Positions 2,290 to 4,423 of a stretch of 4,423 bases of DNA are shown here, in pieces. Numbering within the stretch: the stretch's first letter is position 1; each line of letters opens with the position of its first letter. This DNA comes from a virus (Duplodnaviria; Heunggongvirae; Uroviricota; Caudoviricetes). Under the pieces are notes generated by a model. It made no database searches, had not been told where the DNA came from, and worked only from the letters and a program-made list of their open reading frames with translations. The stretch lies in IMG/VR virus record IMGVR_UViG_2531839239_000021. One strand, written 5' to 3'. Position numbers and translations under genes: made by a program.

Positions 2290-2715
2290 TTAATGCACAG
2301 CCAGAGTGTTTCCTGCCGGGCCACCACGATTCATCTGATCGAACAGAACGATCGCTGATGCAACGAAATCATCAATATCTTTCACCAGCCGTTCCTTCGT
2401 CTCTACCAACTCCCGAAAATAAGCGGAACTGTGGCTGCGCATTCGGGCCACCAGCGGAGGCGGCATCGCTTTTTCGATCGCTGGTAACAACGCCTGAATT
2501 TTTTTAACCGCATCAGGAGTGTCTTTCTCCACCCAGCGGAAAATTTTCTGAGTATTGCGAGCCATGGCTTCCGGATGGCTGTCGTCATACAGTTCCGGGA
2601 ACGTCATTCCCAGCTCGAAATACGCTTTGGTAATTTTCGCAGCCGGTACTTTTTCGCCGTCCGGATGCGCCCAGACATTCATCGCCATGCGGATGTGTTC
2701 ATGCTTGATTTTCAT
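2290..2715 (-). CDS. ydaT: YdaT-like protein (Rac-prophage YdaT family; reported as the CII-equivalent of Rac-type switches), 141 aa
   Basis: Minus-strand ORF MKIKHEHIRMAMNVWAHPDGEKV...NTLAVH. The start ATG shares the 4-nt ATGA overlap with the stop of the upstream YdaS-like gene (2715..2712). The N-terminal MKIKHEHI and the position directly after a ydaS-like gene match my recollection of Rac YdaT; family call from memory, not a search. Confidence 0.65.
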   Translation of the reverse strand: MKIKHEHIRMAMNVWAHPDGEKVPAAKITKAYFELGMTFPELYDDSHPEAMARNTQKIFRWVEKDTPDAVKKIQALLPAIEKAMPPPLVARMRSHSSAYFRELVETKERLVKDIDDFVASAIVLFDQMNRGGPAGNTLAVH

Positions 2716-3014
2716 GAATCAACTCCATCAGATAAGCATGCACTACAATCACCTTCAGCATGAACTACATGTGTTTGCCCCAAACGAATGCCGCTCGCAT
2801 ACTCAGGCCAAATAAGCTCCCAATCATGGGGTCGTAGCTCCGCCCTACTTACTTGGCCTTCCGTCGCAGATTCGATCATAAGGGCGCGGGTTGGAGATAT
2901 AGCTGTTCGTCCAGACGCCATTTGCGATAAGTAAGATGGCGATACACCAAGTCTGGCCGCGAATTTCTTAGCATCACCAACCCTTAATGATTTAATAAAC
3001 TCTTTTAATGTCAT
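2712..3014 (-). CDS. ydaS: Cro-like HTH regulator of the YdaS family, 100 aa
   Basis: Minus-strand ATG at 3014 preceded by CGAGGAAGGT (SD). Translation MTLKEFIKSLRVGDAKKFAARLGVSPSYLSQMASGRTAISPTRALMIESATEGQVSRAELRPHDWELIW... aligns with my recollection of E. coli Rac YdaS (LGVSPPSVNQW...AIERATRGEVLCEELRP). Transcribed divergently from the repressor-like gene, as for cro. Confidence 0.8.
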   Translation of the reverse strand: MTLKEFIKSLRVGDAKKFAARLGVSPSYLSQMASGRTAISPTRALMIESATEGQVSRAELRPHDWELIWPEYASGIRLGQTHVVHAEGDCSACLSDGVDS

Positions 3015-3042
3015 ACCTTCCTCGGTTTAGTGTTTTTTTGCG

Positions 3043-3072
3043 AGTTTAGTGTTTAATAAACCATTAAGTCAA
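3043..3072 (-). promoter_or_regulatory. PR-like leftward promoter for the ydaS-like operon, with an embedded 11-bp palindromic operator
   Basis: Minus-strand -35 TTGACT (plus coordinates 3072..3067), 18-nt spacer, -10 TAAACT (3048..3043). The perfect odd palindrome GTTTAATAAAC (3051..3061) lies in the spacer. Predicted transcript start is about 22 nt upstream of ATG 3014. Confidence 0.55.
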
Positions 3073-3076
3073 GTAT

Positions 3077-3105
3077 TTGCTTGTTTAGTGATTACTAAAG
3101 ATAAT
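3077..3105 (+). promoter_or_regulatory. PRM-like rightward promoter for the repressor-antitoxin-toxin operon; predicts a leaderless mRNA
   Basis: -35 TTGCTT (3077..3082), 17-nt spacer, -10 GATAAT (3100..3105). The spacer holds the near-palindrome TTTAGT-GATT-ACTAAA (3084..3099). The -10 ends 6 nt before ATG 3112, and there is no SD upstream of that ATG. Confidence 0.5.
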
Positions 3106-3111
3106 TACCAC

Positions 3112-3483
3112 ATGCAAAAAAAAGAAATTCGCCGTTTACGTCTCAAGGAGTGGTTTAAAGATAAAACTCTGCCACCCAAAGAGAAGAGCTACCTATCTCA
3201 ACTAATGAGTGGGAGAGCCTCGTTTGGAGAAAAGGCTGCCAGAAGAATAGAGCAAACATACGGGATGCCGGAAGGGTATCTGGATGCGGAATACGCAGAA
3301 CAACCGGGGGGTTCTCCACCACATGCAGGGTTAACGTCTAATCAACTGGAATTATTGCAGATTTTTTCAGCCTTCCCTGAGGATGAGCAACGCCAGATAA
3401 TCAGCGAGTTAAAGCAGAAAAAAGAATCAATGGAAGATCTCATAGCGAGATGGATTGCGGCGCAAAAATGCCGCCGCGCCTGA
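3112..3483 (+). CDS. paaR: HTH transcriptional regulator in the CI-repressor position; first gene of a three-component TA operon (PaaR-like), 123 aa; the track's GTG at 3049 is a possible but less likely start
   Basis: ORF MQKKEIRRLRLKEWFKDKTLPPKEKSYLSQLMSGRASFGEKAARRIEQTYGMPEGYLDAEYAE... Divergent from the cro-like gene and followed within 20 nt by the antitoxin and ParE genes. Contains the motif SYLSQLMSGR, which is also present in the YdaS-like protein. The paaR name is my recollection of the E. coli O157:H7 paaR-paaA-parE systems and is not verified. Confidence 0.7.
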   Translation: MQKKEIRRLRLKEWFKDKTLPPKEKSYLSQLMSGRASFGEKAARRIEQTYGMPEGYLDAEYAEQPGGSPPHAGLTSNQLELLQIFSAFPEDEQRQIISELKQKKESMEDLIARWIAAQKCRRA

Positions 3484-3503
3484 GTTATAAAACCGGAGGA
3501 AAC

Positions 3504-3695
3504 ATGAATAGAGCCCTTTCACCAATGGTTTCTGAATTTGAAACCATTGAACAAGAAAACAGTTACAACGAATGGCTGCGTGCGAAAGTAGCAACGAGCC
3601 TTGCAGATCCGCGCCCAGCAATTCCCCATGACGAAGTTGAGCGCAGAATGGCAGAACGCTTTGCTAAGATGCGCAAGGAACGGAGCAAGCAGTAA
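3504..3695 (+). CDS. paaA: Small antitoxin of a ParE-type toxin-antitoxin pair (PaaA-like), 63 aa
   Basis: ATG 3504 preceded by GGAGGA (3495..3500). Translation MNRALSPMVSEFETIEQENSYNEWLRAKVATSLADPRPAIPHDEVERRMAERFAKMRKERSKQ. The TAA stop (3693..3695) is 1 nt before the toxin ATG. Size, charge pattern and position immediately upstream of a ParE-family gene fit an antitoxin. The track ORF 3450..3695 includes an unlikely N-terminal extension. Confidence 0.8.
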   Translation: MNRALSPMVSEFETIEQENSYNEWLRAKVATSLADPRPAIPHDEVERRMAERFAKMRKERSKQ

Positions 3696-3696
3696 A

Positions 3697-3975
3697 ATGT
3701 TACCCGTGTTATGGCTTGAAAGCGCAGATACCGACCTAGATGATATAACTAGTTATATTGCTCGTTTCGACATAGATGCGGCTGAACGCTTATGGCAGCG
3801 ATTAAGGGGTTGTGTGCTGCCGTTATCCGAACATCCGTATTTATACCCACCAAGCGACAGAGTACCTGGCTTGCGTGAGATTGTAGCCCACCCTAACTAT
3901 ATAATTCTATACCGCGTAACAACATCAAGCGTTGAAGTAGTAAACGTGATCCACGCAAGACGCCAGTTTCCCTAA
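3697..3975 (+). CDS. parE: ParE/RelE-superfamily toxin (ParE-like), 92 aa
   Basis: ATG 3697. Translation MLPVLWLESADTDLDDITSYIARFDIDAAERLWQRLRGCVLPLSEHPYLYPPSDRVPGLREIVAHPNYIILYRVTTSSVEVVNVIHARRQFP has the ParE/RelE hallmarks (W..A..DL..I..YI, GLREI, YRV, V.NVIHARR). The track ORF 3601..3975 begins at an upstream ATG inside the antitoxin gene and is not the likely start. Confidence 0.88.
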   Translation: MLPVLWLESADTDLDDITSYIARFDIDAAERLWQRLRGCVLPLSEHPYLYPPSDRVPGLREIVAHPNYIILYRVTTSSVEVVNVIHARRQFP

Positions 3976-3993
3976 CTTTCACTACCAATAGAA

Positions 3994-4039
3994 ACATAAC
4001 AACCGCAACGACTTTATCAAAAGCGTTGTGTTTGTTATG
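3994..4039 (+). terminator. Imperfect 16-bp inverted repeat downstream of the toxin gene; candidate weak terminator or protein-binding site
   Basis: CATAACAACCGCAACG (3994..4009) and CGTTGTGTTTGTTATG (4024..4039) are reverse complements apart from two positions (one a G-U wobble in RNA), with a 14-nt loop. The stem is A/T-rich and no clean U-tract follows, so terminator function is uncertain. Confidence 0.3.
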
Positions 4040-4056
4040 TCCCGCGGTTTAGTTTT

Positions 4057-4096
4057 TACTTGACTTAAGTTTAATGTTTATTAAACTAAAAATACC
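4057..4096 (+). promoter_or_regulatory. PL-like rightward promoter/operator unit, an inverted copy of the PR-like unit at 3041..3075
   Basis: -35 TTGACT (4060..4065), 16-nt spacer, -10 TAAACT (4082..4087). Palindrome GTTTATTAAAC (4076..4086) overlaps the -10. The 12-mer TACTTGACTTAA (4057..4068) is identical to the minus-strand sequence at 3064..3075; GTTTAGT at 4047..4053 and ACTAAA at 4085..4090 echo the half-sites of the 3024..3099 region. Confidence 0.5.
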
Positions 4097-4423
4097 AACC
4101 CACCCCGCCCCACAGAACGCAGGGAAATACTTCGAGTTACCCGGCAGTGGTCAGGGGTTAAGTAGCCAGCCCGAGGCGTATGAACATGACGGCAGGGTTC
4201 AACTTTAATAACTATGCAGCAGTTTTTTGTTCCGCTACCCCGGCGTTAAGGGGAAACAGAGGGTTTCTCAGTGGGCGAAGTCAAACATCAGAATGGAAGG
4301 CATCCCGGGATCGGCAAAGAAGCAGCAATGGCGCTTTATATTGACATCAGCGCCATTGCAGGACAGGTAAGAGTTATCAGAGCGGTAACTAAGCGGTATG
4401 CGCCTTTACTTCAGAAAGTCTCT

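Follow-up and report, generated by a model that had tools for sequence, protein, structure and literature searches.

The element at positions 4046–4096 of the window, a viral DNA of 4,423 nucleotides analyzed here over its full length, is with near certainty OL/PL933P, the early-left promoter-operator of a CP-933P/Sp12-type lambdoid prophage immunity region. PL933P and its OL are already published (Jurenas et al. 2021, mBio 12:e02947-21, PMC8630535); the idea drawn from the sequence alone is right and is not new. Additions to the published picture are the orientation of the operator array, a two-cluster layout across genera, a homology boundary at ~4098, and a leader RNA. PMC8630535 is the source for PaaR2, YdaS, and PL933P.

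By megablast, window 2900–4423 is 100% identical to prophage Sp12 in many Escherichia coli O157:H7 chromosomes, including Sakai, and Sp12 is reported to be identical to CP-933P of EDL933 (PMC8630535). Phage Evi shares 98.3% identity with the same segment. The alignment to Sp12 is limited to 2290–4423 (97.6% identity overall), of which 2290–2900 is less than 100% identical. The left part of the window, which carries replication genes (520–2290), is absent from Sp12 and is a different mosaic variant. Because the window is mosaic and 2290–2900 is not fully identical, its ydaS and ydaT alleles may differ slightly from those assayed. In Sakai, where the locus is annotated as "prophage Sp12, lambda-like phage," CI is ECs_2279 and Cro is ECs_2278.

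Forward-transcribed genes are paaR2 (3112–3483), paaA2 (3504–3695), and parE2 (3697–3975). paaR2 encodes the CI-analogue repressor, a 123-aa regulator without an S24 peptidase domain (Sakai CI annotation, PMC8630535), for which no Pfam match was found. The paaA2 antitoxin and the ParE-family toxin were identified by the Pfam families PaaA2 (E = 1e-19) and ParE_toxin (E = 1.9e-16). Reverse-transcribed genes are ydaS (2712–3014; Pfam YdaS and HTH_3), encoding the Cro analogue and first in the PR transcript, and ydaT (2290–2715; Pfam YdaT), encoding the CII analogue (PMC8630535). The 97-bp paaR2–ydaS intergenic region (3015–3111) is OR, with repeats at 3025, 3044, and 3083 and a degenerate one at ~3064. 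Inside OR lies PR933P on the minus strand (−35 TTGACT, 3072–3067; −10 TAAACT, 3048–3043). On the plus strand, PRM933P yields a leaderless paaR2 mRNA from 3112, as determined by 5′ RACE (PMC8630535).

PL933P lies beyond paaR2-paaA2-parE2 (3112–3975, plus strand) and on the same strand as the repressor gene. Its −35 TTGACT (4060–4065) is part of TACTTGACTTAA (4057–4068, plus strand), an exact inverted copy of 3064–3075 and one of exactly two copies in the window. Its −10 TAAACT (4082–4087) follows 16 nt after the −35. The first OL repeat, GTTTAGTTTTTACTTGAC (4047–4064), has the consensus GTTTAGT as its left half and carries the PL −35 in its right half; its published counterparts are the 18-bp inverted repeats whose half-site is GTTTAGTAA. 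The second, GTTTAATGTTTATTAAAC (4069–4086), includes a 16-bp palindrome, TTTAAT-gttt-ATTAAA (4070–4085). The OL operators overlap the PL −35 (4047–4064) and the spacer plus −10 (4069–4086), and TAAACT, the −10, falls within an operator half-site. TTTAGT (4048–4053) and ACTAAA (4085–4090) half-sites are present, as the first-pass annotation described. A promoter scan placed TTGACT-N18-TAAACT at 3072..3043 (minus strand) and TTGACT-N16-TAAACT at 4060..4087 (plus strand). The generic promoter/terminator scan gave no enrichment over shuffles (7 promoter sites versus 4.9 ± 2.4 expected) and served solely for locating hexamers; the PL promoter call therefore comes from the published reporter together with comparative conservation.

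The first-pass annotation had also described OL as an inverted second copy of the OR promoter-operator unit. This holds for the promoter core, where GTTTATTAAAC (4076–4086) is the exact reverse complement of GTTTAATAAAC (3051–3061), but not for the operator array, which aligns at least equally well in direct orientation. Local alignment of OL 4041–4086 with OR 3019–3061 scores 47 direct and 41 inverted, and the OL repeat at 4069–4086 aligns with the OR repeat at 3044–3061. Five GTTTAGT-type direct repeats (family D1), at 3025, 3044, 3083, 4047, and 4069, run in the same direction at OR and OL. The 12-mer and the palindrome are separated by 2 nt at OR and 7 nt at OL; because this spacing differs, the identical −10 hexamers derive from different operator half-sites. 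Inversion between OR and OL is limited to the promoter core. As the operators are pseudo-palindromic, their orientation is functionally meaningless.

Regulation of this DNA was described by Jurenas et al. (PMC8630535). PaaR2 is the CI analogue, with a leaderless mRNA, YdaS is the Cro analogue, and YdaT is the CII analogue. PaaR2 and YdaS bind the 97-bp paaR2–ydaS intergenic region in EMSA and DNase I footprints, and the inverted repeats in OR, 18 bp long, have the half-site consensus GTTTAGTAA. Counterparts of PL/OL were then sought, and PL933P, so named in analogy to lambda, is placed downstream of paaR2-paaA2-parE2 with −35 and −10 hexamers identical to those of PR933P and three operators, OL1–3. 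A PL933P-gfp fusion is strongly active without regulators and is repressed ~100-fold by PaaR2 and likewise by YdaS; leaky PaaR2 levels are already enough to shut it off, and YdaT has no effect on it. Primers F-PL-SacI and R-PL-BamHI (Table S3) map to window positions 3976–3996 and 4072–4093, so the assayed fragment is 3976–4093 and includes the flagged element up to 4093, ending just short of the predicted +1. This fusion answers the check proposed in the first-pass annotation, a reporter for 4040..4100 with and without the regulator, and the ~100-fold effect of PaaR2 bears out its prediction of repression by the 3112..3483 product. Together with the conserved hexamers and operators, the published PL933P also agrees with its picture of a repressor–TA operon bracketed by operator-controlled outward promoters resembling OL/PL and OR/PR. 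EMSA and footprints in the available text of PMC8630535 concern the OR fragment, and its 5′ RACE covers paaR2 and ydaS, the two genes with such primers in Table S3. A description of OL being bound directly by PaaR2, or of OL–OR looping, was not found in that text.

The reporter data bear on the view that OL is an auxiliary operator only, looping to OR to tighten PR/PRM control without a promoter of its own. PaaR2 octamerizes in solution (cited in PMC8630535), OL lies ~1 kb from OR, and the array resembles OR in direct orientation, each of which fits that view. Set against these, 3976–4093 drives gfp strongly without a regulator (PMC8630535), OL and PR share the same −35 and −10 hexamers, and outward promoters are kept in relatives. 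Looping and promoter function are also compatible, lambda OL doing both. An operator devoid of promoter activity is at odds with the published reporter result and is considered very unlikely.

Relatives of PaaR2 were compared to place the element in its repressor family. The homologues have a common N-terminal DNA-binding domain (residues 1–58), 60–80% identical, in two architectures: a short PaaR2-like form and a form of 210 aa that includes an S24 LexA/CI peptidase domain. A genome scan gave 64 loci from Enterobacterales, Pasteurellales, and several Betaproteobacteria, and 60 were analyzed. Across these 60 loci, 118 TTTAGT/ACTAAA half-sites fall at −200..0 of the repressor start, versus ~0–11 per 200-bp bin elsewhere on the cro side. 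All further clusters of at least three half-sites occur on the downstream side of the repressor gene, at distances of 67 to ~3400 bp from its stop; the 60 loci have none outside OR and repressor-downstream DNA. At 36 loci, the 3 kb downstream contained a longer maximal match to OR than the 3 kb upstream did, versus 10 loci with the opposite result (Wilcoxon p = 2.6e-5). Sharing of 10-mers between OR and its flanks at the 60 loci was too noisy in AT-rich genomes, and the longest-match and cluster statistics were used instead.

Outward promoters matching the sigma-70 consensus at ≥9/12 positions are embedded in the operators of 8 of the 14 downstream clusters inspected. Seven of these eight have the form TTGACN-17/18-TAAACT, which mirrors the PR arrangement at OR; the opposite strand of the 14 clusters has a single weak promoter site. 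Loci with downstream outward promoters include Yersinia, Proteus, Undibacterium, and a Nitrosomonas MAG. As clusters and outward promoters recur across relatives, the two-cluster design is a family trait. The stretch separating the repressor gene from OL is a variable cargo slot, occupied here by paaA2-parE2. The GTTTAGT operator, a −10 within the half-site, and a second outward-promoter cluster past the cargo constitute a conserved design with or without the S24 domain. These comparative results broaden the published PL933P picture.

Transcription from PL probably starts at ~4094–4095, 7 nt after TAAACT, close to the position near 4094 suggested earlier. The start was inferred from hexamer spacing and from a homology boundary in heteroimmune phages. 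Phages 640R1, Tritos, 689R5, 606R7, 666R9, 683R6, and pPE4 encode repressors unrelated to PaaR2, diverge from the window upstream of ~4098, and are homologous to it thereafter. In the four heteroimmune phages aligned first, manual reading of the alignment revealed their own −35 and −10 just before the shared block. Immunity-specific DNA stops 6–12 nt past each −10 in the heteroimmune phages, as expected if transcription starts there and in agreement with ~4094–4095. In those with the repressor gene fully within the retrieved region, the conserved block starts 100–130 bp past the repressor stop. With heteroimmune homology resuming just past the promoter, the PL element fits an exchangeable immunity cassette.

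These positions also bear on whether OL serves the TA module, as a leftward or antisense promoter or as a PaaA2-ParE2 autoregulation site at the parE2 3′ end. A minus-strand TTGATA-N16-TATGTT with an extended TG (4020..3993) could be read that way. It lies inside an imperfect 22-bp hairpin between parE2 and OL (3994–4040), falls outside 4046–4096, and is a consensus match only, and no minus-strand promoter was predicted within OL. PaaA2 is not known to have a DNA-binding domain. In heteroimmune relatives without TA genes, 100–130 bp separate the repressor gene from their own PL region, and members of the PaaR2 family have TTTAGT clusters as near as 67 bp past the stop. Since PL/OL is near the repressor in relatives, some without TA genes, the element belongs to the immunity switch and not to the TA cargo, and a role in the TA module is regarded as highly improbable.

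Chance likeness of two AT-rich intergenic stretches is a negligible possibility: OR and OL are both ~70% A+T (51% for the whole window) and GTTTAGTG with one mismatch is not enriched by count (5 matches versus 2.9 expected), but the exact 12-mer TACTTGACTTAA averages 0.01 occurrences in shuffles with 0/200 reaching two, TTTAGT-N4-ACTAAA with ≤2 mismatches has four window matches, all in OR or OL (3045–3060; 3084–3099, perfect; 4048–4063, with two mismatches; and 4070–4085), versus a shuffle mean of 0.15 with 0/200 reaching four, the motif pair recurs across 60 related loci, and the regulation is experimentally shown (PMC8630535).

In OL/PL933P, a sigma-70 promoter (TTGACT 4060–4065, 16-nt spacer, TAAACT 4082–4087) fires rightward, away from paaR2-paaA2-parE2. 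It is buried in two or three copies of the 18-bp pseudo-palindromic operator, with half-site GTTTAGTAA, that also forms OR. In a lysogen-like state, PaaR2 would directly occupy the OL operators and silence PL along with PR; in the opposite state, YdaS likewise represses PL. Repression would presumably be by promoter occlusion, and OL and OR may cooperate over ~1 kb through PaaR2 octamers. OL is the distal partner required for any PaaR2-mediated OL–OR looping.

The plus-strand hairpin at 3994–4040 is a candidate terminator and, by analogy with tIMM in lambda, may block PRM read-through into the PL operon. It folds at −24 kcal/mol (z = −4.07), with 0/200 shuffles equally stable. It has no canonical U-tract, and a terminator scan did not pick it up. 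A permissive E-value Rfam search of the whole window returned a single match, a spurious miRNA on this hairpin; over OL, no match was found in the same mode.

Downstream of PL on the Sakai plus strand are DicF (Rfam, 76.7 bits), dicB, ydfD, an exonuclease gene, xis, and an int pseudogene. These genes would form one transcript, and the PL transcript would comprise a ~160-nt leader, small ORFs, dicF, dicB, the exonuclease gene, xis, and int. Because dicF-dicB lies downstream on the plus strand, PL933P is likely the driver of that dicF-dicB copy. CP-933P is reported to carry dicBF (PMC5069750); no explicit literature statement tying CP-933P dicBF to PL933P was found.

The leader (4095–4257, plus strand) is a discrete module, with unrelated immunity DNA upstream and differing first genes downstream (ydfA, a ydaG-like ORF, or an Sp12-type ORF). 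A scan of viral contigs for its invariant core gave at least 120 leader loci. Among the matches listed and the phage loci, at least 92 different leader sequences were counted, with three divergent classes represented. Scores from the covariance model are 184 bits for the window leader and 168 bits for K-12 Rac, between racR and ydaG, where the K-12 annotation has nothing. Divergent copies directly follow PaaR-family repressor genes in Winslowiella (68.5 bits), Pantoea (59.9 bits), and Arsenophonus (38.5 bits), and K-12 Qin has a weak, degenerate match (21 bits). With the covariance model, exactly one copy was found per phage, always on the PL side. A 1.5-kb query containing the leader and flanking immunity and downstream DNA has matches in ~70% of complete E. 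coli genomes. The leader matched no family in Rfam, and a full-text literature search with its core, TAAGTAGCCAGCC, returned one unrelated fish lncRNA paper.

Stems were predicted with RNAalifold, and one stem (P0) was added manually. In a MAFFT alignment, six pairs change on both sides, versus 1.6 ± 0.8 in shuffles and 0–2 in slid controls. With divergent copies included, there are 11 two-sided pair changes, versus 3.8 ± 1.1 in shuffles and 1–4 in slid controls, in an alignment that leans towards structure because it was fitted to the covariance model. The basal stem varies by lineage as CCAC/GUGG, CGCAU/AUGCG, ACUG/CAGU, GCUG/CAGC, and GGCAA/UUGCC. Folding of the single leader sequence is no more stable than that of shuffles (z = +1.25), so the claim of structure comes from covariation alone. 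A small ORF (start 4180/4186) was considered as the source of leader conservation. It meets a stop after six codons in pPE4-class variants, and coding constraint therefore cannot account for that conservation. On alignment and covariation, the leader appears to be a structured RNA common to heteroimmune Rac/Qin/dicBF-type prophages.

A tentative proposal, to which we assign a low probability, is that the PL933P transcript opens within 1–2 nt of +1 with this structured ~160-nt RNA, which may act in cis so that the N-less transcript reaches dicF, dicB, the exonuclease gene, and xis/int. Hypothetically, such a cis role on the early-left transcript could be factor-independent antitermination, processing, or stability. 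HK022 putL offers a likeness in lambdoid phages, as a cis-encoded RNA starting a few nt from the PL start. HK022 lacks N, and in the phages examined the DNA past PL likewise has no annotated N gene. The leader differs from put in length (~160 versus ~70 nt) and in having no second copy downstream of PR. A put-like identity of the leader was rejected, given no meaningful similarity to HK022 PL/putL and no PR-side copy. HK022 and HK639 were absent from distant blastn matches to the leader, and a covariance-model search gave no match in the HK022 locus (L074). The PL/operator sequences of Tritos and 666R9 resemble those of HK022.

The element itself does not differ from CP-933P PL933P/OL1–OL3, having the same DNA and the same regulators, PaaR2 and YdaS. 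It resembles lambda OL/PL in that the promoter lies past the repressor operon and points as the repressor gene does, operators shared with OR overlap PL, and the CI and Cro analogues both repress. Cargo lies between the repressor gene and OL in both, rexAB in lambda and paaA2-parE2 here, and the repressor mRNA from PRM is leaderless in both. Unlike lambda, the operators here are repeats of 18 bp (half-site GTTTAGTAA) and TAAACT, the −10, lies within a half-site, the OL and OR arrays are at least as similar direct as mirrored, and PaaR2 has no RecA-cleavable S24 domain. OL and OR are ~1 kb apart here and ~2.3 kb apart in lambda. No N gene or recognizable nutL follows PL here; the conserved leader and a dicF-dicB operon are found instead. 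K-12 Qin (dicA/dicC/dicB) and Rac (racR) share the order of repressor, early-left promoter, small ORFs, dicF-dicB or kil, exonuclease, and xis/int, and Rac also carries the leader. Both differ in having other repressors and operators (heteroimmune) and no toxin–antitoxin cargo.

For OL/PL itself, the value of the analysis is confirmatory: a lambda-like OL/PL was reconstructed from sequence alone, with no new biology. OL/PL closes the immunity cassette that carries paaA2-parE2, and PL933P probably controls one of several dicF-dicB copies in enterohemorrhagic E. coli (EHEC). The leader starting at the PL +1 is the most useful lead from the analysis. If it is cis-acting, the PaaR2/YdaS bistable switch would set the cell-to-cell heterogeneity of one EHEC DicF sRNA copy, and the leader could explain distal early-left expression in N-less Rac/Qin-type prophages.

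A conserved leader of ~160 nt lies on the plus strand at window 4095–4257 and begins at the predicted +1 of the early-left promoter PL. Copies are found on the minus strand of the K-12 Rac locus (L196, 2963–3118), where the leader is unannotated, and at three further loci, L031 (4485–4652), L026 (4480–4646), and L011 (5886–6037). The leader is common to heteroimmune prophages of the Rac/Qin/dicBF type, in which the immunity DNA 5′ of it and the first genes 3′ of it differ. Its base pairs covary, with both sides changed in 11 pairs (shuffles, 3.8 ± 1.1), a count that leans towards structure because the alignment was fitted to the covariance model. No family for the leader was found in Rfam. The leader may act in cis on the early-left transcript.

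The leader is followed by two overlapping ORFs, antisense to each other. The predicted 118-aa plus-strand ORF (window 4271–4423, continuing into 10372–10728 of the Sakai locus L001) starts at the position of the ydfA start in other phages. RefSeq annotates the other, a predicted 68-aa CxxC...CxxC zinc-ribbon ORF of the ECs_2282 family on the minus strand (L001 10507–10713). Within this ORF region, at window 4325–4359, GCAATGGCGCT and AGCGCCATTGC form a perfect inverted repeat of 11 nt whose arms are 13 nt apart.

Upstream of PL, an imperfect 22-bp hairpin (window 3994–4040; −24 kcal/mol, z = −4.07) is located between the parE2 stop and the operator array OL. The hairpin has no canonical U-tract. 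By analogy with tIMM in lambda, it may act as a terminator and shield PL from read-through from PRM, the paaR2 promoter. A minus-strand promoter-like match, TTGATA-N16-TATGTT (4020..3993), also lies within the hairpin.

By sequence comparison, the window is a mosaic of 1–2900 and 2900–4423. Positions 2900–4423 are identical to the E. coli O157:H7 cryptic prophage Sp12/CP-933P, positions 2290–2900 are diverged, and positions 520–2290 are absent from Sp12. Because 2290–2900 is diverged, the C-terminus of ydaT, the CII analogue, is not the one that a published primer implies for the EDL933 allele. A further junction at ~4256/4257 coincides with the leader end. The minus-strand ORF for a 400-aa replication protein (458–1660) contains five exact copies of AAGCCCCTT (0.04 expected) at 1079–1109 and 1346–1365 with 11-bp spacing, which look like origin iterons inside an O-like gene.

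The DNA-binding domain of PaaR2 (residues 1–58, window 3112–3285) was compared across loci L003–L065. The N-terminal domain of ~210-aa S24-peptidase CI-type repressors is 60–80% identical to it, and PaaR2 appears to be a CI repressor that has had its self-cleavage domain replaced. From Enterobacterales to Betaproteobacteria, these loci conserve the operator half-site GTTTAGT and, embedded in that operator, the promoter TTGACN-17/18-TAAACT. Two Pasteurellaceae relatives (L059 and L060) encode a short hairpin, CGAGAT-ACAC(A)-ATCTCG, just 3′ of the PL-like promoter. In L060, GCTGCTCTT comes after the hairpin, resembling a boxB/boxA nut site. Some of the PaaR2 family may thus rely on N-type antitermination at the place that the conserved leader occupies in Sp12.

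In Sakai, a DicF sRNA gene (L001 11361–11412; Rfam, 76.7 bits) lies ~1.2 kb 3′ of PL933P; dicB is also 3′ of the promoter, and both are on its strand. The EHEC dicF-dicB copy behind PL933P is probably under control of the PaaR2/YdaS switch.
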